Positions 3,497-32,000 of a DNA stretch of 32,000 nucleotides are shown in pieces. How positions within the stretch are numbered: position 1 is the first letter of the stretch; every line of letters begins with the position of its first letter. The stretch covers positions 1-32,000 of the forward strand of contig VGKT01000005.1 in assembly GCA_016866955.1 (NCBI GenBank), read 5' to 3'. Origin of the DNA: Candidatus Pacearchaeota archaeon. Its GTDB lineage: Archaea > Nanobdellota > Nanobdellia > Pacearchaeales > GW2011-AR1. The notes beneath the pieces were generated by a model. The model did not search any database, had not been told where the DNA came from, and saw only the letters and a list, made by a program, of their open reading frames with translations. The position numbers were made by a program, and so were the translations under genes.

Positions 3497-5305
3497 TTAG
3501 AGTTCTAATTCGAAACTGCCCAATGCTTTTTGCAAGGTTGCAAACAAACTACCAGAAATCTTAGTGCTCAATTTTCCTTTATTATCGGCCAATGCTTTTT
3601 CAAATGCTTCTTTGGTACTTCCCACTATTTTTTCCCCTTTAATTTCTTGAATATTTTGTCCTTCAATAATAAAGTTTTGATTACCTAAAAGTACCAATTC
3701 GGCCTTACGTCCTTGATATGCAATCTGCATCATGCCTTTTTCAGCACTCACCAAGTCAGCGCGCTGAGCATATTCAGTAAGTGCGGCAATAAGTTCATAT
3801 GCATCTTTCTTAAGCGTGTCAGCTTCTTTAGCGCTCAATTTACCTGCCAGAATTTTACGCCGAGCTTTAACCAATTCAGGCAACACCTTTCCAAATCTAT
3901 TAGAAACTTTTCCTTTCTTAACCATCTGAACAGAAAATGCGCTCACGAGTTGTGCAGGAGATTTTTTCCCAAAGAATGTTTCAAGCAACTTGAACACTTG
4001 TTGATAGAGCTCTTCAGCACTTTTTTCCTGAGAACGTTGTTCCAATTGATTGCGGATTTTTTTCAAACGAACATTATACGCAAGACATTCTTTCAAAAAG
4101 AGATCAACTTCTGTTCCTGAAAATTCTTTCAATTTACCATATTCATATTGTTTAAACAAATGCACTGCTTTACCAACTAATTTCAAATCCTGAGCACTCA
4201 TGACCTTCTCACGTTCTACCAAAACATGCTTAACTTCCTCAACCATTGTTTTCGGAACAGGGGGAGCTTCTCCCGCTAACATCATCATTGCTTGGGTTGG
4301 CGTTACAACCCCATAATAAATATCAACCATCGCATCCAATAATCGTCGCTTAATGAATTCTTTCGTCTGATCTCCTTGTTTTACATACATATCAATTGCT
4401 TCAGGACTCGGTTTAATTCTACCCATCTTAAGCAACAATTTCCAAGGAATAAACGTTCCACGATCATATAACGGAATTCCATCCCGAATAAACGTAAAAG
4501 CAACAGGTTCGGCATCCTTCACACGTTGCCAGAAATCAGTCAATAACCAAACTTGCACATTTAACGGGTTCTTAACTCCTGCCAGAGCAGTTGCTTCCTT
4601 AATGTAATCATGAATAATTCCTCGTAAACGTTCCAATAATTCAACACGATTCATACGTTTCACGTCAGTATCATCAATTACCACGAAACAATCAATATCT
4701 GAATCCTTGCCCGCCGTTCCTCGCACTAAACTTCCTCCAATCACATAACTTGCAATGTACTTGTCAAATTTACGCATAACCATCGTTTTATGAATACTAG
4801 CTAAACGCAACGCGCCTAAGAAACCGTTATCGGAAATCGGAAATCCTTGTGCAACTGCATCAAGCAAATCAAACTTGCTGTCCAACCCATAATTGAATAT
4901 ATCTACAGGTGTTTTGATATGCACCCAGATATGCTCTTTCGTCTGTTTTGCAAGAGCAATAATCTCCGGTTTTATTTTGGGAATATGTTTGAAATCTTCT
5001 TCGGGTATTAACATCATAACATGAAGCGGTTTACTTTCCACCACTTCTTTCGGCAATAATTCATCTTCTTCAATAAGTAGAGATGCCTGAGGAGGTAACA
5101 AGACAAGTGCAAGAGTGGATTTATATTTTTTTAAAACTTCTTTCTTAAAGACTTCTAATTTTCCTTTTAATGCTTCCAAATTAAGGCTTGGTGCAGGTGC
5201 CCCTCCCGAAGCATTCGGTAGACCAGGGACATTCGGCGCAAGCGGAGAAGCGGGCACATAAGAAGGAGTTCCCGGTTTCATTTTTCCCGATAATGACCCA
5301 GCCAT
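3497..5305 (-). CDS. Pol-beta superfamily nucleotidyltransferase domain protein with long helical C-terminal extension (602 aa)
   Basis: NTase signature GGSLVRGTAGKDSDIDCFVVIDD (G-S/G...D-x-D). Pro/Gly-rich N-terminus. The downstream helical region is paralogous to ORF 2-508. ATG 5305 lies 21 nt from TATA 5327-5334. Confidence 0.8.
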   Translation of the reverse strand: MAGSLSGKMKPGTPSYVPASPLAPNVPGLPNASGGAPAPSLNLEALKGKLEVFKKEVLKKYKSTLALVLLPPQASLLIEEDELLPKEVVESKPLHVMMLIPEEDFKHIPKIKPEIIALAKQTKEHIWVHIKTPVDIFNYGLDSKFDLLDAVAQGFPISDNGFLGALRLASIHKTMVMRKFDKYIASYVIGGSLVRGTAGKDSDIDCFVVIDDTDVKRMNRVELLERLRGIIHDYIKEATALAGVKNPLNVQVWLLTDFWQRVKDAEPVAFTFIRDGIPLYDRGTFIPWKLLLKMGRIKPSPEAIDMYVKQGDQTKEFIKRRLLDAMVDIYYGVVTPTQAMMMLAGEAPPVPKTMVEEVKHVLVEREKVMSAQDLKLVGKAVHLFKQYEYGKLKEFSGTEVDLFLKECLAYNVRLKKIRNQLEQRSQEKSAEELYQQVFKLLETFFGKKSPAQLVSAFSVQMVKKGKVSNRFGKVLPELVKARRKILAGKLSAKEADTLKKDAYELIAALTEYAQRADLVSAEKGMMQIAYQGRKAELVLLGNQNFIIEGQNIQEIKGEKIVGSTKEAFEKALADNKGKLSTKISGSLFATLQKALGSFELEL

Positions 5306-5536: not shown

Positions 5537-6046
5537 ATGGAAAAGGAGGATCAGAAAATAAAGCATGATTTTGCCCGGTTTGCATTCAGCACGCTCTCCG
5601 ACCAAATCAAACAAGCAGATACCAAAGCATTTGGAGTGTTAAGCATCGTAGGCGTATTAACTGCAGGATTACTTGCACGCCTCAATGCGATTAAATCTGC
5701 TGTTGGCTTAAACTCAACATGGATTATCCTCTTCATTATTTCTGCTGTACTTATCATCTTCACCCTCAAAGCAGTGATTCGTGTCATCTTTCCGCGGCTC
5801 GCAAATAATCCGCTGCACGAACGAAGCATCCTGTACTTTAGAGATATCGTCGCGCAACCAAAACAACACTATGTCAACCTCGCCAGTAGGTATACAAACG
5901 AAAAGCTACTCGAAGGGCTGTATATAGACGTGTACAATCTTTCCATCATCGCAGATGCAAAATTTGCTTCGTTACGTAAAGCACTCATCCTCACGGTTCT
6001 TACCTTCGCCTGGACAATCACTATTATTCTCCTTTCCTATAGGTAA
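5537..6046 (+). CDS. small 3-TM membrane protein resembling the DUF5706 / Pycsar-effector (PycTM-type) or SLATT-like membrane effector domain
   Basis: N-terminal motif LSDQIKQADTKAFGVLSIVGVLTAGLL (the ADTKA-then-TM pattern I associate with DUF5706). Second TM WIILFIISAVLIIFTLKAVI, soluble stretch, C-terminal TM ALILTVLTFAWTITIILLSY. At 169 aa it is domain-sized. Confidence 0.45.
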   Translation: MEKEDQKIKHDFARFAFSTLSDQIKQADTKAFGVLSIVGVLTAGLLARLNAIKSAVGLNSTWIILFIISAVLIIFTLKAVIRVIFPRLANNPLHERSILYFRDIVAQPKQHYVNLASRYTNEKLLEGLYIDVYNLSIIADAKFASLRKALILTVLTFAWTITIILLSYR

Positions 6047-7665: not shown

Positions 7666-7881
7666 GCACCTTTTCAAATAGCGTGAATTATAGGGAATTT
7701 TGGGGAGATATGAGGGAATTATATAATCCAGAAGGGACACTCCCAGAAAAAGTGTTGTTTTATCCTTGTGTATTGATTGTATTTGTGAGTTCCTCCTTTA
7801 TCGACTTATTTAATACTTCCCCTAGAACAAAAGAAGAGATCGCTCCCTCTCTTCTTGAAAGAGAAACTCTTACCTAAAGAA

Positions 7882-7965
7882 TTATTTCTTTTCTTTTCGC
7901 TCTTTATTTTGCTTACGCACCCATTTTGCTCGGCGCTTGCGTGCGATACGCGTTGATTTTCGCAT
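7882..7965 (-). CDS. candidate 27-aa highly basic peptide (eL41-like look) starting 2 nt after tRNA-Val
   Basis: MRKSTRIARKRRAKWVRKQNKERKEKK, with 15 of 27 residues K/R. The RAKW-RK core is reminiscent of eL41 (MRAKWRKKR...). ATG at 7965; the tRNA-Val discriminator is at 7968. It is too short for the ORF track. Confidence 0.35.
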   Translation of the reverse strand: MRKSTRIARKRRAKWVRKQNKERKEKK

Positions 7966-7967
7966 AA

Positions 7968-8039
7968 TGGGCCTAACCAGAATCGAACTGGTGCATGGTC
8001 GGTGTAAACGACCCGGTCTAACCACTAGCCTATAGGCCC
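7968..8039 (-). tRNA. tRNA-Val (anticodon UAC)
   Basis: Minus-strand sequence GGGCCTA-TA-GGCT-AGTGGTTA-GACC-G-GGTCG-TTTACAC-CGACC-ATGC-ACCAG-TTCGATT-CTGGT-TAGGCCC-A. Cloverleaf has one D-stem mismatch. No encoded CCA. A TATA box lies 23 nt upstream. Confidence 0.9.
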
Positions 8040-8062
8040 CTATACTCGTTTAGAACAAATGC

Positions 8063-8070
8063 TTTTTAAA
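8063..8070. promoter_or_regulatory. single shared (bidirectional) TATA box between tRNA-Val and ORF 8092-8559
   Basis: TTTTTAAA lies 21 nt from ATG 8092 on the plus side and 23 nt from the tRNA 5' end (8039) on the minus side. Confidence 0.5.
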
Positions 8071-8091
8071 CGTTGAGCTAAACGAAGAATC

Positions 8092-8559
8092 ATGAACGAC
8101 TATGCATTACGCGTAGAATCTTTTGAATATCTCTTCAGAGATCGCCTTGCTCTTTGTGTACGAGGGCTTGCAAACGTTACCGATGAAGAAACAGCTATTC
8201 TAAATCTGCTCTTTTTACAACAAATAAAAAGAGATCTAGAAAGAAATAAGGATGGGTTTATGGTTCGTTATTATCTTCATGCACTTCAACAAGAACATTT
8301 TCCTCATCACTCATTACGTCCTACATTCAGGCGTGCAGAACGCCTTATACGTGCGCGAGATAACGCCATAGGTATCCTTGCTGCAAACAGTGCACTTGCA
8401 GAATTAGAACAGACCGCTTTAGAACAAAAAATCCCTTCAACATATTTGGCAACAATGGATATGCGCGAGTTTGAAGAAATAGATACCCTGGAGAAACCAG
8501 AACAATATGCACTCAGAGATGGATTGTTATTAGATCAATTTGGTATCCGCATCTGGTAA
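8092..8559 (+). CDS. hypothetical protein (155 aa)
   Basis: ORF with canonical TATA spacing; no motif recognised. Confidence 0.6.
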   Translation: MNDYALRVESFEYLFRDRLALCVRGLANVTDEETAILNLLFLQQIKRDLERNKDGFMVRYYLHALQQEHFPHHSLRPTFRRAERLIRARDNAIGILAANSALAELEQTALEQKIPSTYLATMDMREFEEIDTLEKPEQYALRDGLLLDQFGIRIW

Positions 8560-8567
8560 AGAAGAGG

Positions 8568-9134
8568 CTAACATCGTTGTTGATAACATTTCTCAAGAGC
8601 TTTCAACACGGAAGGTAATTCAGTAATTCTGTCATCTGCACCAAAATGTCCTTTACCATCATCGAGCATCAATTCCCCTCCAAGTTCTGCCTGCAACTCA
8701 AGCACTTTTCCAAACGGTATGGCAGGATCTTTCCGTCCTCCAATCACGATTGTTTTCATCACTCGTTGCTTAATTTCTCCAAATGGAAAAGGCTGAGCAG
8801 TAAAGGAGTTAATCTCAGGAGCGTCAGATAAGGAAGAACAAAAACCCGCAACCAACACAATTCCTCCAATACGTGCATCACTAGGCAAGGTTGCAAGATA
8901 GCGCAAAATCGCCGGGCATCCTAGACTATGTCCTACAAAGTACGTATGCTTATCAGGATCAGGTATGGTTTCCTTCAAAACAGTCATCCACTCATCAATA
9001 GTGGGATGTTCCCCACCAGGAAATTGAGGCGCAATCCATTTCCATCCTTTCTTCTCAAGTTGTTCTTTGAGCCAAGGCTTCCAAGCGTCATCAGGTACCC
9101 CATCCCACCCATGCACGAGTACAACACGTTTCAT
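8568..9134 (-). CDS. alpha/beta-fold serine hydrolase, YdeN/RBBP9-like
   Basis: VVLVHGWDG..W..WL start, GHSLG nucleophile elbow, and a size of about 190 aa. TATA (9156-9164) lies 21 nt upstream of ATG 9134. Confidence 0.75.
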   Translation of the reverse strand: MKRVVLVHGWDGVPDDAWKPWLKEQLEKKGWKWIAPQFPGGEHPTIDEWMTVLKETIPDPDKHTYFVGHSLGCPAILRYLATLPSDARIGGIVLVAGFCSSLSDAPEINSFTAQPFPFGEIKQRVMKTIVIGGRKDPAIPFGKVLELQAELGGELMLDDGKGHFGADDRITELPSVLKALEKCYQQRC

Positions 9135-9173
9135 AAAAACCTAAAGAAAAAGGGATTTAATAAAGATACTAGT

Positions 9174-9416
9174 CTATCGTAATTCCAATCCTAAGCGATG
9201 TGCTTCTAATCGTAACGAAGGAACACATTTCTTCTTCGTAAACGCACAAATTACACAACAAGCAGAAGGAGGAGTATTTGTTCGATTCGCACATCCATCA
9301 CAATCAAAATAACCTGGACTTGCATCAGGAGGTACTTTTCGTTTACATATTTTCCCACATACTTGACAGATAATAGAGGCAAGAAGGGGGACACGCAATC
9401 TCTTTTTTCTTCCCAT
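9174..9416 (-). CDS. Cys-rich small protein (80 aa) starting 4 nt after tRNA-Gly
   Basis: MGRKKRLRVPLLASIICQVCGKICKRKVPPDASPGYFDCDGCANRTNTPPSACCVICAFTKKKC has 9 Cys including CxxC, CxxC and CCxxC. The ORF-track version (to 9461) would run through the tRNA, so I start it at ATG 9416. Confidence 0.5.
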   Translation of the reverse strand: MGRKKRLRVPLLASIICQVCGKICKRKVPPDASPGYFDCDGCANRTNTPPSACCVICAFTKKKCVPSLRLEAHRLGLELR

Positions 9417-9420
9417 TGAA

Positions 9421-9492
9421 TGCGGCCATCGAGAATCGAACTCGACTCTGCTCGTTGGCAACGAGCCGTTCTAACCGATGAACTATGGCCGC
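9421..9492 (-). tRNA. tRNA-Gly (anticodon GCC)
   Basis: GCGGCCA-TA-GTTC-ATCGGTTA-GAAC-G-GCTCG-TTGCCAA-CGAGC-AGAG-TCGAG-TTCGATT-CTCGA-TGGCCGC-A. Palindromic TATA TTTATAAA (9516-9523) lies 23 nt upstream. Confidence 0.93.
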
Positions 9493-9531
9493 GTACTATT
9501 CAGTCAATTATTGATTTTATAAAGATAAGTA

Positions 9532-11441: not shown

Positions 11442-11445
11442 AAAC

Positions 11446-11599
11446 TCCCCCCACCCAGAATCGAACTGGGGTAACTCGGGTTCTGTCATATTGTTCTCAT
11501 GAACAATCGCTGATCACGCTTCATCGTGCTTCCCAAAGGGAAACTCCGCGCTAGTCTTAGTGACTACAGCCAAGTGCTCTACCATTGAGCTATGAGGGG
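11446..11599 (-). tRNA. tRNA-Tyr (anticodon GUA) with an 83-nt intron at the canonical 37/38 position (intron 11481-11563)
   Basis: Exon 1: CCCCTCA-TA-GCTC-AATGGTA-GAGC-A-CTTGG-CTGTAG. Exon 2: C-CCGAG-TTAC-CCCAG-TTCGATT-CTGGG-TGGGGGG-A. C1-G72 is typical of archaeal tRNA-Tyr. The bulge-helix-bulge has a 4-bp helix CTGT/ACAG flanked by 3-nt bulges AG^T and AA^C. A T5 run follows the 3' end. Confidence 0.88.
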
Positions 11600-11760
11600 A
11601 CTGTGTAAAGAAAGAAGTACCGCGCCCCAATAAGGGAAGATGAAGCCTTAAGGAACCGTTGGTTTCTTACGCTCGCGCTGTACCGCATTCACTACATGTG
11701 TTCTCATAATCATGACTTTATAAATCTTGAGCTACTAGTTATCATCGATAAAAAGGAGAT

Positions 11761-15110: not shown

Positions 15111-16043
15111 ATGCGCCTTATCTTTCATGGAGTACGTGGATCCTACCCACAACCAGATGCACGGATGATACAATATGGGGGAAGAACAACTTGTCTTCAG
15201 ATTACTAGTGCAGAAGGAAAGCACTATTTAGTTGATGCAGGCAACGGTATTATTCCTGCAGGAAAAAAAATGTACGAAATTGAAGGAAAGACAGGAAAAG
15301 TATCGCTTCTCTTTACGCATCTCCATCGCGACCATTTAGAGGGATTTCCCTTCTTTCGACTCGCATATGAAAAAGGATGGTACATTCATCTCTATGGGGG
15401 ACATACCGCGCTGCTTGAAGAACTAGATAAATTACCTCAAGCAACAGGAAAAATTATACAGAAAGGGAAGACAAGGAGCAATGCAGAGGATTTGCGTCAA
15501 GCCTTAAGAACATTGCAAGATACAAACAGAGGATTTTTTCCAATTCCACTAGCAGGTATGCAAGCGCGACTCTATTTTCATGCAGTTGCAGAGGGCATAC
15601 CTTTAGAAAATGAGGAAGAAATGCATATCACTCCCCACTATCATACTTTGCACCCACAGAATATGTGGGCATACGCTTTTGAAGAACATGGCAGAAAACT
15701 CTTCTTCACTGGTGACATCGAAACAACAGGTAGTTTAAAAAAAAGAGAAAACAATCGGTTAGTACGAGCAATGATGCATGTACACACACTTGTAGCAGAC
15801 GGACAATATACTCCTGAAGAATATGAAACCAGGCAGGGATGGGGACATTCCACATATGAGGGGATACTTACGCTTGCTGATCGGGCAGGAGTACAAAATG
15901 TCATCTTAACTCATCACGACCCTGACCATACGGATGCTGTCTTAGATGGAATAGAAATTCGTGCCAAGCGCTATGCACGAGAGACACTCAAATCACGGAT
16001 GAACGTCTCCCTTGCACGAGAAACAATGTATCGCGAAATTTAA
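15111..16043 (+). CDS. metallo-beta-lactamase-fold hydrolase (possible RNA-processing nuclease or phosphodiesterase)
   Basis: HxHxDH motif in LLFTHLHRDHLEGFPFF, a later TGD, and a distal ILTHHDPDH. TATA 15082-15089 lies 21 nt upstream. Confidence 0.75.
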   Translation: MRLIFHGVRGSYPQPDARMIQYGGRTTCLQITSAEGKHYLVDAGNGIIPAGKKMYEIEGKTGKVSLLFTHLHRDHLEGFPFFRLAYEKGWYIHLYGGHTALLEELDKLPQATGKIIQKGKTRSNAEDLRQALRTLQDTNRGFFPIPLAGMQARLYFHAVAEGIPLENEEEMHITPHYHTLHPQNMWAYAFEEHGRKLFFTGDIETTGSLKKRENNRLVRAMMHVHTLVADGQYTPEEYETRQGWGHSTYEGILTLADRAGVQNVILTHHDPDHTDAVLDGIEIRAKRYARETLKSRMNVSLARETMYREI

Positions 16044-16227
16044 TATGAGTAGTAATTCCTTAGTTTTACATTTTTGCGGTATCTTGGACACTTCTCACAA
16101 CTACGTGAATATCTTTCAGTACGTGAAGGTAAAACATGCCAGAAGAGGTACCGTTTACAGCTCATGAATCAATTCCTATAACTCCCTTCCGCCGAGCGTT
16201 TATAAAGCTTCATCCCCTTTTTCTTAT

Positions 16228-17640
16228 ATGAATCTTAAAGAAAACAAAAAAAATATCTGGGAACTCGAGCAAAAAGGAACTATGCATGTTCCTGGAAGAA
16301 TCGTTGCTTCCCAAAAGCTCCTCAATGGGATAACCAAAGATGGTAAAACGCTCCAACAACTTACCAATATGGCAAGCCTTCCAGGTATCCTCAATCCTGC
16401 GTGTGTTATGCCCGATGCCCACCAAGGCTATGGCTTCCCCATCGGTGGAGTTGCTGCATTTGATCTTCAAGAAGGAATCATTTCTCCCGGAGGAGTCGGA
16501 TACGATATTAATTGTGGGGTGCGACTTCTCAGAACAGGCATCAAAGCGAAGGAATTTCTTAAAAAACGCGAGCATATACTCCTTGATCTCCAAAAAGCGA
16601 TTCCCACAGGCGTAAAAACTTCCACTTTCAAACTTTCATTAGTACACCTTACCGCCATCTTGACAACCGGACTCTCCTGGGCAGTGAAACAAGGATATGC
16701 CACCAAAGCAGATCAAGCGTGTTGTGAAGACCAAGGAAGTCTGGAGGGAAACTCTCAAGCAGTCAGTCAACGAGCAAAAGAACGGGGATTGCAACAACTA
16801 GGAACGCTGGGATCAGGAAATCATTTTCTTGAATGCCAATTTGTTGAAACGATATATAACGAAAAAAAGGCAAAAATATTTGACCTTGCAGAGCAAGAAC
16901 TTGTTATTATGATACACTGTGGAAGCAGAGGACTAGGTCATCAAGTTGCAAGCGACTATATTATAAAAATGGAAAAAGAATACGGTTTCAAACATCTTCC
17001 AGATAGAGAATTAGCCTATGCTCCTCTCAACAGCAAACTCGGAAAAGAATATCGTGGGGCAATGAACGCTGCAGCAAACTTTGCATTTGTCAATCGACAG
17101 ATGATAACATATGCAATCAGAACAGTTTTTAGCAAATATTTCCCAGCAAATGAAATCACAGTTATTTATGATATTGCACATAATATTGCAAAATGGGAAA
17201 AACATGAAATAGCTGGGAAAATCTGTGAAGTCTGCGTACACAGAAAGGGCGCAACGCGTTCATTTGGCCCGGGACGAATAGAACTTCCTGCAAAATATAA
17301 TAAGATCGGATGTCCTATCTTTCTCCCGGGGAGCATGGGTACCTATTCGTATGTCTTGCATGGAACAAAAGAAGCCGAACAGCTCACGTTCGGTTCAACT
17401 GCGCACGGTGCAGGAAGAGCGCTCAGTCGAACCTTCGCCAGTAGCAATCTCCAACCTGAAACAATCAAAGCTCAGCTCGCTGAATCAAACGTAACACTCA
17501 AGGGGGCAAGTGCAAAGGGAATGTTAGAAGAAGCCCCACAAGCCTATAAAGATGTTAACGAAGTCGCTAAAGTAAGCGACGAGGCAGGCATTGGTACACT
17601 TATCGCCAGATTAAAACCTCTCGCCGTCTTAAAAGGATAA
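16228..17640 (+). CDS. rtcB: RNA 3'-phosphate/5'-OH ligase RtcB (tRNA-splicing ligase)
   Basis: PDAHQGYGFPIGGV, GGVGYDINCGVR, GSGNHF, HCGSRGLGHQV, PGSMG, HGAGR. TATA 16199-16206 lies 21 nt upstream. Confidence 0.95.
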   Translation: MNLKENKKNIWELEQKGTMHVPGRIVASQKLLNGITKDGKTLQQLTNMASLPGILNPACVMPDAHQGYGFPIGGVAAFDLQEGIISPGGVGYDINCGVRLLRTGIKAKEFLKKREHILLDLQKAIPTGVKTSTFKLSLVHLTAILTTGLSWAVKQGYATKADQACCEDQGSLEGNSQAVSQRAKERGLQQLGTLGSGNHFLECQFVETIYNEKKAKIFDLAEQELVIMIHCGSRGLGHQVASDYIIKMEKEYGFKHLPDRELAYAPLNSKLGKEYRGAMNAAANFAFVNRQMITYAIRTVFSKYFPANEITVIYDIAHNIAKWEKHEIAGKICEVCVHRKGATRSFGPGRIELPAKYNKIGCPIFLPGSMGTYSYVLHGTKEAEQLTFGSTAHGAGRALSRTFASSNLQPETIKAQLAESNVTLKGASAKGMLEEAPQAYKDVNEVAKVSDEAGIGTLIARLKPLAVLKG

Positions 17641-23303: not shown

Positions 23304-24434
23304 TTACCTCCCCTCATACTCCCTAATAAACTTCTTTTTAAATTCCTTAAATTTCCCTGCGCGTATAGCTTTTCGTACTCTGCGCATCAATTCCTGCAAG
23401 AAATATAAGTTATGATAGCTCGCAAGCTGATAACCCACTCCTTCTTCATTTCGAATGAGATGGCAAATATACGCTCGTGAATACCTCTTACACACCATAC
23501 ACGCACATCCTTCATCCAAAGGCTTGAGAGAAGTTTTATATTCTGCATTCGTGACAATGTATTTACCCTTCCAGGAAAAAATATTCCCATGCCGAGCATT
23601 CATGGTAGGAAACCTAGAGTCAAACATATCGCATCCTCGCTCAATCGCTTCCAATAATTCAACAGGATTCCCTGCCCCCATCAAATAAACAGGTTTATTT
23701 CGAGGCAAATACCCTTGACAAACCTCAATCATCCGATATTCATCTTCTTTCGCCTCTCCCAATGCAAGCCCTCCAATTGAAAAGCCATCAAAATCGAGTT
23801 GCGTAAGTGCTTCAGCAGAAACACGACGCAAATCATCATGAATACCCCCTTGCACAATCCCAAACAACAATTGCCGTTTCTTTTTGGAAATCTTTTTCTG
23901 CAAAGCATCATGTGTTTCCTTGCATCGACATGCCCAATTCGTGGTACGAGTAACTGCTAAAGAAACTGCTTCTTTGGAATGGGCAATCAACGGCATGGTA
24001 TCAAAGCACATCGCCACATCACTTCCTAAGTCAAGTTGTAATTGCATATTCTGTTCAGGCGTCATAAAAATCCGCTCACCTGAATAAGGATTTTTGAACT
24101 CAACACCTTTGTCCGTTGAACCCTTATACAAGCTCGGGGAGTACATCTGAAATCCTCCCGAATCGGTAAACATAACACCCTTGTATGAAGATAATGCGCG
24201 AATGCCTCCCAATTTTTTCACGACTGAAGCACCAGGACGTAATGATAGCACAAAGGAATTGCTAATTGTTGCATTCACACCCATTGCTTCAAGCATCTCA
24301 GGAGAAACATGTTTTACTGCAGTCTTAGTAGCAACAGGCATGAAAAAGGGAGTCTCAACACTACCGGAGCGAGTTATTAATTTCCCTACCCGTGCTAACG
24401 AATGCTTGTCTCGTGCAAGTACCTTAAAGGCCAT
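23304..24434 (-). CDS. tgt: tRNA-guanine transglycosylase, catalytic domain only (archaeosine/queuine TGT family)
   Basis: ETPFFMPVATK, TDSGGFQ, SIGGLALGE, and zinc site CACMVCKRYSRAYICHL (CxCxxC...H). At 376 aa it has no C-terminal PUA-type domains. Confidence 0.9.
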   Translation of the reverse strand: MAFKVLARDKHSLARVGKLITRSGSVETPFFMPVATKTAVKHVSPEMLEAMGVNATISNSFVLSLRPGASVVKKLGGIRALSSYKGVMFTDSGGFQMYSPSLYKGSTDKGVEFKNPYSGERIFMTPEQNMQLQLDLGSDVAMCFDTMPLIAHSKEAVSLAVTRTTNWACRCKETHDALQKKISKKKRQLLFGIVQGGIHDDLRRVSAEALTQLDFDGFSIGGLALGEAKEDEYRMIEVCQGYLPRNKPVYLMGAGNPVELLEAIERGCDMFDSRFPTMNARHGNIFSWKGKYIVTNAEYKTSLKPLDEGCACMVCKRYSRAYICHLIRNEEGVGYQLASYHNLYFLQELMRRVRKAIRAGKFKEFKKKFIREYEGR

Positions 24435-25396: not shown

Positions 25397-25469
25397 TGAG
25401 GCCACTGGGAATCGCACCCAGGCCGCCAACACCCCATGCTGGAATCCTACTAAGCTGGACCATGGCCCC
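25397..25469 (-). tRNA. tRNA-Pro (anticodon GGG)
   Basis: GGGGCCA-TG-GTCC-AGCTTAGTA-GGAT-T-CCAGC-ATGGGGT-GTTGG-CGGC-CTGGG-TGCGATT-CCCAG-TGGCCTC-A. TATA lies about 24 nt upstream. The T-loop reads TGCGATT rather than the TTCGATT of the other tRNAs here. Confidence 0.85.
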
Positions 25470-29604: not shown

Positions 29605-30669
29605 CTAAATAAGACTCAAGATGAAAGCAACTAGGCTAAAAAGCAATACAAATAAAATAGCTCTTTTCTTTGATATATGAAGGATTTTCTTTGAAAGGAA
29701 TTTAGTTGCACTGAATAACAAATCAGTATTGAAAAACCAAAATAAACCGATAATACTAAAAGAAACATAAGTAAATACTGCAGGAATAGCAGTCTTACCT
29801 ATAACAAGCCCACCGATAACTGCATCCATGACGCCGCCAAGGTTTGTCCCAATGAGATAAGGTATAGCTTTCTTAAGATTAATAAGCCTTACTACAATTA
29901 ACGGTATAAGCAGGGCAAGAGTTACACTTGTGGATGTCAAAATTAAGGCAATAATCAATCCAGTTAGAAAGGAAAAGTAATTATCCCCCATATATTTATT
30001 AATACTCTTTCTCAGATATGTCTCGCCACAAAATTTAACTATAAAATAAGGCATTTTCTTCAAACTAAAAATCAAAAAAACAATACCTAAAAAGGGAAAT
30101 AGATATGGTGGCACAATAATATCTAACAATTTTATTAAAGGAAGTGTAATGCTATCAATAGAAATAAATTCAAAGGGAATTTGAATGCTGATAAAATAAT
30201 TTCCTATATTTGAGAAAAAAGAAAAGAGATATTCCATGAAAAACATAAGAACTGCTATCGGTAATGCATAGACAATATTTGCCAATCCGATTTCGAATCC
30301 GTGCCTAAAATCACGTTCTTTTGCAGAAATAAATAGTGCTACTAGAAAGAAAGTTATTGTTGTTCCGATTCTTGTTCCTATAACCATAAAAACCAAAAGT
30401 GTTTGCTCTATAATTCCTGCAGAATTTATGGCTGCTAAAGCAGATGTTGTAGCCCCGCTTGATTGCAGTATCAGTGTTAAAAGCCAGCCAATGCCAAAAG
30501 CGTTAACTTCGCTTACGTTGTCGTCAAGCAATCTTAGAAAAGCTATTTCGGCACCACTGAAAAAATATTTTATTAACTCAAGAGAAAGAAAAAATAAAAA
30601 GAAGGAAAGCAATAAACCTAAAAGATAAATAACTTTTTTTTGTTTACTTTCTGCTAAGATAAAATTCAT
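29605..30669 (-). CDS. Na+/phosphate cotransporter family (NptA/PF02690-like) membrane protein
   Basis: GIGWLLTLILQSSGATTSALAAINSAGII (QSS-containing repeat) and a second repeat IGTNLGGVMDAVIGGL. It is polytopic and its coding sequence is AT-rich. AGGAG lies 9 nt upstream of the ATG. Confidence 0.7.
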   Translation of the reverse strand: MNFILAESKQKKVIYLLGLLLSFFLFFLSLELIKYFFSGAEIAFLRLLDDNVSEVNAFGIGWLLTLILQSSGATTSALAAINSAGIIEQTLLVFMVIGTRIGTTITFFLVALFISAKERDFRHGFEIGLANIVYALPIAVLMFFMEYLFSFFSNIGNYFISIQIPFEFISIDSITLPLIKLLDIIVPPYLFPFLGIVFLIFSLKKMPYFIVKFCGETYLRKSINKYMGDNYFSFLTGLIIALILTSTSVTLALLIPLIVVRLINLKKAIPYLIGTNLGGVMDAVIGGLVIGKTAIPAVFTYVSFSIIGLFWFFNTDLLFSATKFLSKKILHISKKRAILFVLLFSLVAFILSLI

Positions 30670-31063
30670 ACTTGAATCTCCTTTTTTCTATGTAAATTTC
30701 AAAGGAAAATACGTTTTATATATGTAACGAAATAAAAATTATTTTAGCCTAGAAGTATCTTATAAATTATTATCAAAAAAAAGGGGTTTAAAGTAAACTG
30801 CTAGGATAGTATGGTGCCAGTATCTCTGGCAAATCTAATGCGATTCAAAAGTTTTTTCTTTTTAATGGAGAATATAATTCTACTGTTTCTGCGGATTATT
30901 TTTCTTTTCATTTTTAATTTTGATCGACAAAATTATGAATTAATATTCTCTAAATTAATATCTGAATTTAAGATAAATAATCATACAAAAATATTAAAAA
31001 AAATCTTAGAAGAAACATAAGTAAAAACAAAATAATTAAATAAGCAATCTTCGTTTAAAATTC

Positions 31064-31495
31064 ATGGAAGAATTAAAAAAAGAGCCTTGGTTAAAAGAAT
31101 CTGCTCGAGACCTCTTAGCTCTTGGAAGCCTTGCAATAGGCCTAGCACTTGTAGCTCGTTCTACGTTGGGAGGTTATTGGAATTTTGTTTATTGGGTTCT
31201 ATTCTCATTCATCGTTCTTTTTGGTTTAAGCTTTATAATAAAAGATTACGAAAGACATCTTGCAAGAGGAATAACTCTTTTATTTTTTACAATTTTATTT
31301 TATAAGGCAGATAGTGATATAACATTTTTGGCAATCTTTTTATCTATTTTATTTATCGTAATGATTGCATCGGCATTTTATCTCAAAAAAGATACAAGAA
31401 CTATTGTAAGGGGAATATTTATGGGCGTCTTTGCTACTGCACTGAGCTATTATATCTCTCTCCCTCTTGCAAGGTTACTCGGACTACCATTTTAA
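31064..31495 (+). CDS. hypothetical 4-TM membrane protein (143 aa)
   Basis: ORF with four hydrophobic helices, AT-rich. No motif recognised. Confidence 0.5.
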   Translation: MEELKKEPWLKESARDLLALGSLAIGLALVARSTLGGYWNFVYWVLFSFIVLFGLSFIIKDYERHLARGITLLFFTILFYKADSDITFLAIFLSILFIVMIASAFYLKKDTRTIVRGIFMGVFATALSYYISLPLARLLGLPF

Positions 31496-31652
31496 GTATA
31501 TATTTAATTTGAAAAATGAAAATAAAAGTCACCTCTTAAAATAAGATTTTATCAAAACGGTTACAGCCCTTGATAAGATTGCTTTTCTATAAACTTCAAT
31601 ATTTTAGTGAAAGTGAAGGTAAAATAACAACTGCTTGACTGGGAGAAATTGA

Positions 31653-31940
31653 AGATTCGAAAGCAACTATAAGTTTCGTGCAAGGGAGATTATGGAAGGG
31701 CAATGGGCTGCTTCAACGGGCAGTGACGCCCAGCCCTATTTTAGAATATTCAATCCGTGGAGTCAGCAAAAAAAATTTGATCCCGAATGTAAGTATATCA
31801 AGAGATGGATTCCTGAATTAGAAAAATACAACTCAAAAGAAATACATCAATGGCAGGGCGATAATTCATATCCCTCCCCAATAGTAGACCATAATATTGA
31901 AAGAAAAAAAGCTTTAGAAATGTTCAAAGAGATATCTTAG
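31653..31940 (+). pseudogene. C-terminal remnant of a DNA photolyase/cryptochrome (FAD-binding domain tail)
   Basis: GQWAASTGSDAQPYFRIFNPWSQQKKFDPECKYIKRWIPEL....YPSPIVDH matches the photolyase C-terminal consensus (GGWQW.A..G.D..PYFRIFNP..Q..KFD..G.YI..W.PEL...YP.PIVDH). An in-frame stop at 31650 and an unrelated gene upstream leave no room for the roughly 350 missing N-terminal residues. Confidence 0.75.
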
Positions 31941-32000
31941 AATGATATTTATTTTTCCTTTTGAATTTTTCTATTTACTTACTTTATAATCAGGGGATTT

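Follow-up and report, generated by a model that had tools for sequence, protein, structure and literature searches.

Two short protein-coding genes begin only 2 and 4 nucleotides (nt) behind the mature 3' ends of tRNA-Val and tRNA-Gly, respectively, in the window, by which we mean the whole stretch of 32,000 nt analyzed here from contig VGKT01000005.1 of a Candidatus Pacearchaeota archaeon. One open reading frame (ORF) codes for a very basic protein of 27 amino acids (aa) and the other for a Cys-rich protein of 80 aa, and both genes would seem to have lost, or never to have had, a TATA promoter of their own. The best explanation for this arrangement, which we hold with moderate confidence on the basis of sequence comparisons, is that each tRNA is co-transcribed with the ORF behind it, that an RNase Z-type cleavage releases the ORF, and that the resulting, nearly leaderless mRNA is translated.

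Anatomy of the two tRNA-ORF junctions

ARAGORN and Rfam recognize four tRNAs in the window, namely tRNA-Val(tac), tRNA-Gly(gcc), tRNA-Tyr(gta) and tRNA-Pro(ggg), the first two of which are followed on the minus strand by a closely apposed ATG (table 1). The original prediction had placed such junctions at two of the four tRNAs, and its count is right, as are its coordinates: in both programs, and on reading the minus strand, tRNA-Val ends at 7968 and is followed by UU and the ATG at 7965, and tRNA-Gly ends at 9421 and is followed by UUCA and the ATG at 9416. The acceptor stems end with ...UAGGCCC plus the discriminator A at 7968 and with ...UGGCCGC plus the discriminator A at 9421, respectively, and in neither case is CCA encoded. 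An ATG that lies within 0-5 nt and opens an ORF of at least 27 aa is found by chance at 3.8% of the window positions, and one opening an ORF of at least 80 aa at 1.4%; conservation, presented in the following section, is a stronger argument for the reality of the ORFs than these statistics. The existing gene calls of the window's own contig include neither ORF.

We laid out the 60 nt upstream of 29 ORFs of the window and built a position weight matrix (PWM) of the TATA box from the sites found there. In these regions, a (C/G)TTTA(A/T)ATA box recurs at constant spacing from the ATG, and the TATA 10-mer begins between -30 and -33 in no fewer than 14 of the 29 genes. Since the box is fixed about 30 nt 5' of the start codon, leaderless mRNAs are the norm in this genome, as had been supposed. 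The boxes of tRNA-Val and tRNA-Gly, both at -32, score 10.7 and 9.0 with this matrix, values that only 0.7% and 1.6% of random 60-mers reach. Upstream of the two ORFs there is no TATA-like element, the best scores being 3.3 for the 27-aa ORF and -1.0 for the 80-aa ORF; these are at random level, for 30% and 84% of random 60-mers, respectively, score as high or higher. The region between -35 and -20 of both ORFs is in fact occupied by the conserved T-arm of the tRNA (GTTCGATTC). For canonical TATA promoters, which are what this test covers, the earlier claim that neither ORF has a box of its own and that the sole promoter is the one upstream of the tRNA is thus borne out.

Oligo-T termination immediately behind the tRNAs had been named as grounds for abandoning the idea; it was looked for and not seen at tRNA-Val or tRNA-Gly, where T runs do not exceed 2 nt within 15 nt of the tRNA. 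The other tRNAs of the window are followed by TTTTT (tRNA-Tyr) and TTTAATT (tRNA-Pro). Folding of the tRNAs is predicted to be independent of the ORF sequence: the tRNA-Val cloverleaf still forms with 50 nt of downstream sequence added, and that of tRNA-Gly is kept in the modeled fold of tRNA plus ORF (z = -2.7). No special RNA structure relative to shuffled sequence was detected at the 5' ends of the two mRNAs (z = 0.48 and -0.29).

Further features of these promoters deserve mention. Counted from where the mature tRNAs begin, the TATA box starts at -32 (8039-8071 and 9492-9524), as compared with -30 from the ATG of leaderless genes, and therefore the primary tRNA transcripts would carry 5' leaders of only about 1-2 nt. 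Such short leaders recall the leaderless transcription of tRNAs in Nanoarchaeum equitans, which has no RNase P. The box of tRNA-Val is the only one in the 52-nt gap (8040-8091) separating this tRNA, on the minus strand, from a divergent 155-aa gene on the plus strand (ATG at 8092), and it is nearly palindromic (GTTTAAAAAG / CTTTTTAAAC). Lying at 8062-8071, 32 nt from the 5' end of tRNA-Val and about 21-30 nt from the ATG of the 155-aa gene, it may be a shared bidirectional promoter; together with the next 15 nt, it is conserved in L029 and L031 (homologous loci of relatives are labeled L0xx, L010-L028 being those of 19 GTDB species of DPANN archaea).

Table 1. Features of the window discussed in the text, beginning with the two tRNA-ORF junctions.
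Feature	Position	Strand	Evidence or remarks
TATA box of the tRNA-Val promoter, GTTTAAAAAG	8062..8071	-	Start 32 nt 5' of mature tRNA end; PWM 10.7
tRNA-Val(UAC), 72 nt	7968..8039	-	ARAGORN; Rfam RF00005, 60 bits
Spacer UU, 2 nt, tRNA-Val discriminator to AUG	7966..7967	-	Same in L031
27-aa very basic ORF, MRKSTRIARKRRAKWVRKQNKERKEKK plus stop	7882..7965	-	ATG at 7965; stop 7884-7882
Decayed remnant of codons 28-45 of the small ORF	7826..7881	-	MAFFT alignment with L031, L002 and L030
TATA box of the tRNA-Gly promoter, CTTTATAAAA	9515..9524	-	Start 32 nt 5' of tRNA; PWM 9.0
tRNA-Gly(GCC), 72 nt	9421..9492	-	ARAGORN; Rfam, 64.7 bits
Spacer UUCA, 4 nt, tRNA-Gly discriminator to AUG	9417..9420	-	
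80-aa Cys-rich ORF, 10 Cys	9174..9416	-	ATG at 9416; stop 9176-9174
Intergenic stretch 3' of the 80-aa ORF	9135..9173	-	TATA-like CTTTATTAAA (9165..9156) for next gene; T5 run (9151..9147)
188-aa Ser_hydrolase gene, next co-oriented	8568..9134	-	Pfam PF06821, E = 7e-25
tRNA-Tyr(gta), long intron	11445-11600	-	Missed by default ARAGORN; found by Rfam and aragorn -i
310-aa metallo-beta-lactamase (MBL) fold protein, candidate tRNA 3' endonuclease	15111..16043	+	Pfam Lactamase_B_2, E = 6e-13
tRNA-Pro(ggg)	25397-25469		Rfam/ARAGORN

Conservation of the two small proteins

Conservation of the two ORFs in related genomes had been suggested as a check, and both pass from mere ORFs to genes under purifying selection when compared with their relatives. 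Homologues of the small basic ORF occur in three further lineages, the L002 type (a Pacearchaeota metagenome-assembled genome, MAG, from Lake Baikal), L030 and L031, in all of which it codes for 45 aa. The six pairwise comparisons give non-synonymous divergence (dN) values of 0.09-0.135 with synonymous divergence (dS) of at least 1.2 or saturated, and the dN/dS of the small ORF is below 0.1; between the window and L031, dS is 1.24 and dN/dS 0.07. Within codons 10-27 (KRRAKWVRKQNKERKEKK), 10 sites distinguish the window from L002, all of them synonymous and at the third position (0/0/10 for codon positions 1/2/3). Over the 27 retained codons, the differences from L031 and L002 amount to 10-13 synonymous versus four non-synonymous codons, without any frameshift. 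To judge from this pattern, the small ORF truly codes for a protein.

The window copy was first described as a very basic ORF of 27 aa starting at 7965, which indeed is present there, but it is a C-terminally truncated version of the 45-aa gene. Its reading frame is closed by a TAA at codon 28, and the decayed 3' remnant has lost 12 nt and contains another in-frame stop. The same truncation is present in all eight strain-level contigs that reach codon 28, a ninth ending one base short of it, and the 27 codons and the junction with tRNA-Val are identical in nine of nine. Near-identical contigs are present in the Logan runs SRR7990526, ERR14789950 and ERR148224xx. A scan for terminator-like elements finds a hairpin in the remnant (7856..7831) with TTGTTC behind it, where the transcript may end. 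The current function of the truncated copy is less certain. The 45-aa gene, too, is absent from the gene calls of its assembly in the case of L002.

The 27-aa ORF has no match at E <=10 in either Pfam or NCBIfam, and the 45-aa forms have only weak, unrelated matches in Pfam (E >=0.04) and none at E <=0.01 in NCBIfam. A profile search of 5.8 billion proteins retrieved only the L030 and L002-type copies of the basic ORF, and HMMER, run exhaustively against 1.84 billion representative proteins, recovered one of the queries and no other sequence. For a wider family, Joint Genome Institute (JGI) metagenome contigs were scanned with a back-translated pattern; this produced 410 matches, none of which was confirmed, and a stricter DNA pattern produced none at all. 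As far as these searches reach, the family is known from four lineages only. The ribosomal protein eL41, suggested by an RAKW motif, was considered and dropped, having no support in Pfam, NCBIfam or the PDB; phmmer did not find eL41 chains in the latter, its only match being an eL14 chain (E = 6.3), though short sequences of biased composition are hard to detect and this negative is a weak one. A separate resemblance concerns the C-terminus of the L002 protein (PFKIHIQKG; L002 7186-7223), which is similar to the N-terminus of rps6e (MPFKINIAEKG; L011 4975-5010), a gene that directly follows tRNA-Val(tac) in L011. This 10-residue match (pairwise E = 0.001) has no equivalent in L030 or L031, and could be a relic or a coincidence.

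The 80-aa ORF has 30 homologues that share 53-78% identity with it over the full length, and all of them measure about 80 aa. All members start with MG(R/K)KK, Met1 and eight Cys residues being invariant, and the protein is evidently a member of a conserved, DPANN-wide family. Its dN/dS is 0.19 versus L002 and 0.12 versus L029, values indicating that the ORF is a real gene under purifying selection; in view of this and of the conserved MG(R/K)KK start, the ATG at 9416 is the true initiation codon. Taken together, the ratios of the two genes (below 0.1 and 0.12-0.19) would imply translation in this lineage.

The arrangement of Cys residues in the 80-aa protein (CxxC...CxxC...CCxxC...C) predicts a zinc-ribbon-like fold. 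The GDCCVxC domain (NCBIfam NF041374) matches profile positions 2-54 of 58 with E = 3e-7 and 30.5 bits, below its cutoff of 40 bits; the motif of the family is (A/S/G/Q)CC(V/I)IC, with invariant CCxIC and without the GD of GDCCVxC. An AlphaFold model (predicted local distance difference test score, pLDDT, 76) has short beta-strands followed by two helices, for which Foldseek returned no structural neighbor in the PDB at E <=0.001, the best hits (E >=0.15) being small proteins in ribosome entries. One source names a homologue (P0021) Elf1, an identity that we rejected given the lack of a Pfam Elf1 match at E <=10.

Junctions in relatives, proposed mechanism and competing explanations

Inspection of the ORFs behind the same tRNAs in related genomes, another check that had been called for, reveals that fused junctions persist in other species (L031 for the small ORF, L002 and L025 for the 80-aa gene). 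The window and L031 share the identical junction ...GGTTAGGCCCA-TT-ATG (...GGCCCA-TT-ATG), followed in L031 by an intact ORF of 45 aa, and their neighboring 155/170-aa proteins are 67% identical. The identity of this junction and the intact state of the L031 ORF at a dS of 1.24 mean that the promoter-less fusion has long coexisted with purifying selection, and constitute the strongest in silico evidence that the small ORF is expressed from the tRNA promoter. The alternative state, in which the gene bears its own promoter, is seen in L002, where it lies 43 nt 3' of tRNA-Val(tac) with GTTTATAACC starting at -30, and in L030, where it is located elsewhere and preceded by CTTTATAATC at -31.

In the 19 GTDB species, the 80-aa gene almost always lies within 1-3 kb of tRNA-Gly(gcc) and tRNA-Val(tac), with varying order and orientation; the surroundings of these tRNAs are both a conserved neighborhood and a rearrangement hot spot. 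Most copies have a TATA box of the TTTATTAA(T/A) type about 30 nt 5' of the ATG, and orthologues with a canonical box near -30 and no tRNA directly upstream are found in L013-L017, L020, L022-L024, L026 and L008. Tight junctions between tRNA-Gly and the ATG, leaving no room for a TATA box, occur in the window (4 nt), L002 (10 nt) and L025 (14 nt), the last of these in front of a homologue with 51% protein identity; a gap of 25 nt in L021, beginning with TTTATTAT, is a possible further junction. In L029, L005, L011 and L018, the gene lies 1-8 nt 3' of a protein gene. Hence the 80-aa gene, when devoid of its own TATA box, always sits directly 3' of a co-oriented gene, be it for a tRNA or a protein, which is the expected picture for a gene that relies on transcription coming from upstream. 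Within the window's own lineage, the Gly junction is identical in seven strain-level contigs. Two side observations pertain to the same tRNAs. In L017 (JAUYMA010000009.1, 6335-6350), tRNA-Val(tac) is followed at 11 nt by the start of an ORF of at least 129 aa (MEKAPIFVHPGFLRRPD...), which has neither a TATA box nor a T run before it and is another candidate for a tRNA-fused gene in a different species; in L030, tRNA-Gly(gcc) (4968-5053, minus strand) has a 14-nt intron in its anticodon loop according to aragorn, whereas the window orthologue has none. The fused state can apparently be stable in evolution, as suggested by the Val-UU-AUG junction at dS >1 and by the junctions of 10-14 nt behind tRNA-Gly or tRNA-Val in L002, L025 and L017.

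In the mechanism that we propose, RNA polymerase would start from the TATA box of the tRNA (at -32) and run through the tRNA into the ORF, meeting no oligo-T stop. An endonucleolytic cut of the tRNase Z type right behind the discriminator would then generate at once the 3' end of the tRNA and the 5' end of the mRNA; a cut at this site is expected because the tRNA genes encode no CCA. The released mRNA would begin with pUUAUG... behind tRNA-Val or pUUCAAUG... behind tRNA-Gly and, with 2-4 nt in front of AUG and no Shine-Dalgarno sequence, would enter the 5'-end-dependent, leaderless type of initiation like the rest of the genome. Co-transcription, cleavage and translation are the steps that we infer here. 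Beyond this locus, we suggest more tentatively, as a view that falls a little short of being probable, that compact leaderless DPANN genomes use tRNA genes as promoter-and-processing cassettes, tRNase Z routinely yielding 5'-monophosphorylated, near-leaderless mRNAs that are translated, in an archaeal version of the tRNA punctuation of mitochondria.

Several points weigh against this mechanism. RNase Z products bear a 5'-monophosphate. In Sulfolobus solfataricus, binding of leaderless mRNA is helped by the 5'-triphosphate, which mimics the -1 base, and the toeprint obtained with monophosphorylated mRNA is intermediate (PMC11698992); our inference is that the 2-4 leader nt could supply the -1 base in place of the triphosphate. 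A bona fide RNase Z was not found in the window, which has only the distant MBL-fold protein of 310 aa; its best NCBIfam matches are RNase Z models, TIGR02651 (RNase_Z) giving 39 bits versus a cutoff of 293. The contrast in T runs is modest: among 48 tRNAs from the window and non-redundant relative loci, a run of at least three T within 15 nt is present behind 28 of the 43 tRNAs without an abutting gene and behind one of the five with such a gene. The Gly junction is not universally kept either, for L029, the closest relative by its 80-aa gene (78% identity), has no tRNA upstream of it. Finally, the 27-aa copy has lost the last 18 codons of its family and may be turning into a pseudogene.

The arrangement does not amount to a conserved system, since most relatives carry these genes with a TATA box of their own or directly behind a protein gene. 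The tRNA promoter would therefore seem to have been captured opportunistically, and in its evolution the locus resembles a case of promoter capture within a tRNA cluster prone to rearrangement more than a dedicated system.

A less functional reading of the same history is that the junctions are by-products of deletion or rearrangement at the tRNA hot spot and that the ORFs are expressed poorly or not at all, the smaller one decaying as a pseudogene and the larger one being silent or redundant. The truncation and 3' decay of the 27-aa ORF would fit this reading, as would the great variation of gene order and orientation around tRNA-Gly and tRNA-Val and the tiny size of the small-protein family, with four lineages and no others among the 1.84 billion representatives. 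We nevertheless consider it unlikely, and plausible mainly for the 27-aa copy, given that L031 keeps the identical junction with an intact ORF at the low dN/dS reported above, that the retained 27 codons in the window differ from L031 and L002 mostly by synonymous changes and never by a frameshift, that the 80-aa gene, with its dN/dS of 0.12-0.19, is intact when fused in at least three species, and that every strain-level contig examined carries the fusion.

It is also conceivable that the precursor is translated uncleaved, or cut only at the 5' end of the tRNA, which would then act as a structured, stabilizing 5' untranslated region (UTR) with internal initiation. Archaeal precedents for such leaders exist in Thermococcus kodakarensis, where TK0306 has a tRNA-Lys in its 159-nt 5' UTR (PMC4247193), and in N. 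equitans, where the 5' half of tRNA-His forms the 5' UTR of valRS (PMC3491384). Moreover, the 80-aa gene may be read by internal initiation as a distal cistron where it lies 1-8 nt behind a protein gene (L029, L005, L011 and L018). Termination-reinitiation, the likely route behind a protein gene, is impossible behind a tRNA, however, and no Shine-Dalgarno-like motif is present in the 2-4 nt spacers or accessible upstream, where the acceptor stem is paired. Every functional tRNA must also be cut exactly at the junction, CCA not being encoded. These features render the translation of an uncleaved precursor distinctly unlikely.

Quite improbable, in our judgment, is a cryptic, non-canonical promoter inside the tRNA gene, from which the ORF would be transcribed independently into a 5'-triphosphorylated, truly leaderless mRNA. 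The genome does contain weak or atypical promoters, as 15 of the 29 window genes lack a high-scoring TATA box at -30 with the simple PWM, and L021 displays TTTATTAT right after tRNA-Gly, 25 nt before the ATG. Yet the sequence available at -35 to -20 of our two ORFs is that of the T-arm, with a score at random level; heavy transcription of the tRNA gene would occlude a promoter within it; and the same genes bear a canonical TATA box when they are not fused to a tRNA. As to a non-coding RNA behind tRNA-Val(UAC) instead of a protein gene, for instance a C/D box small RNA (sRNA) as in N. equitans, this candidate is effectively refuted and its probability next to nil, for the minus strand of 7800-7967 contains neither a C box (RTGATGA or TGATG) nor a D box (CTGA), no Rfam match, snoRNA families included, is better than E = 0.7, and substitutions in codons 10-27 are codon-periodic.

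Genomic setting and comparison with known systems

Homologues of the window proteins come from MAGs of Pacearchaeota, Nanoarchaeota and Woesearchaeota, all of them DPANN archaea. The guanine-plus-cytosine (GC) content is about 40% and falls to 0.28-0.32 in 30001-32000, a part that may be foreign or rich in intergenic DNA. The 188-aa Ser_hydrolase gene behind the 80-aa ORF is syntenic with the latter in most relatives and may receive read-through transcription. The 310-aa MBL-fold protein opens a cluster of tRNA-maturation genes (15111-17640, plus strand, and 23304-24434, minus strand), in which it is adjoined by the tRNA-splicing ligase RtcB and followed, further on, by tRNA-guanine transglycosylase. 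At 5537-6046 (plus strand), a 169-aa protein with a Pycsar effector transmembrane (PycTM) domain (E = 2e-12) is syntenic in L002, L005 and L031.

A recent review states that archaeal mRNAs are not processed post-transcriptionally (PMC7531240), and the wider use of tRNA genes as cassettes in compact DPANN genomes, if true, would contradict this textbook statement. We found in the literature no direct report of archaeal leaderless mRNAs arising from tRNA processing, only partial precedents. Were the proposal confirmed at the RNA level, the 5' end of an archaeal mRNA, and hence its translation start, would be made by tRNA processing and not by transcription initiation. It would also bear on the need for a 5'-triphosphate in archaeal leaderless initiation, on the expression of genes whose promoters were lost in genome-reduced DPANN archaea, and on how often gene calling misses small proteins beside tRNAs, and the tRNA-UU-AUG junction would offer a simple, testable natural model for the evolutionary origin of mitochondria-like punctuation. 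If not confirmed, the locus would represent an ordinary outcome of rearrangement around tRNA genes.

A close analogy is the tRNA punctuation of animal mitochondrial DNA, which Ojala, Montoya and Attardi reportedly described in 1981. As in that system, the tRNA abuts the ORF at a distance of zero to few nt, the ORF has no separate promoter, and RNase Z would set the 5' end of a leaderless or nearly leaderless mRNA. In contrast to mitochondria, each unit here consists of one tRNA and one short ORF on an archaeal chromosome, presumably driven by the tRNA's own TATA promoter and not part of a genome-length polycistron; only two of four tRNAs are involved; and the ORF ends with an ordinary stop codon followed by T-rich sequence.

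Protein genes also ride on tRNA promoters in the tRNA-mRNA operons of bacteria, as in tyrT-tpr of Escherichia coli, the transcript of which carries a small protamine-like protein (PMC3141248) that is, like the one predicted from our 27-aa ORF, very small and highly basic. These operons differ in having sigma-70 promoters and leadered mRNAs, and their proteins share no sequence similarity with those reported here. An archaeal tRNase Z also serves to generate the start of a functional RNA lying downstream in Haloferax volcanii, where the 5' end of 5S rRNA is produced from a t-element (PMC4326828), in the same manner that we propose for the two junctions; the H. volcanii element is merely tRNA-like and its product is an rRNA or CRISPR RNA (crRNA), whereas here a functional tRNA would yield an mRNA.

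Archaeal tRNA sequences that share one promoter with a downstream protein gene are exemplified by the tRNA-Lys (TKt3) inside the 5' UTR of TK0306 in T. kodakarensis (Jäger et al. 2014, PMC4247193) and by the tRNA-His half preceding valRS in N. equitans. Those are long, tRNA-containing leaders, whereas in our window the AUG lies 2-4 nt from the tRNA end and processing would leave an essentially leaderless mRNA. A close archaeal parallel is the dicistron of N. equitans in which tRNA-Val(TAC) is directly followed by the C/D box sRNA8, the 5' end of which is made by RNase Z (Randau 2012, PMC3491384). Both cases concern DPANN archaea, the same tRNA isoacceptor and a promoter-less downstream gene, the 5' end of which is generated, or in our case proposed to be generated, by 3' processing of the tRNA. 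They differ in the nature of the downstream element, which in the window is protein-coding, with codon-periodic selection and no C/D boxes, so that the RNA released from tRNA-Val would need to be translated.

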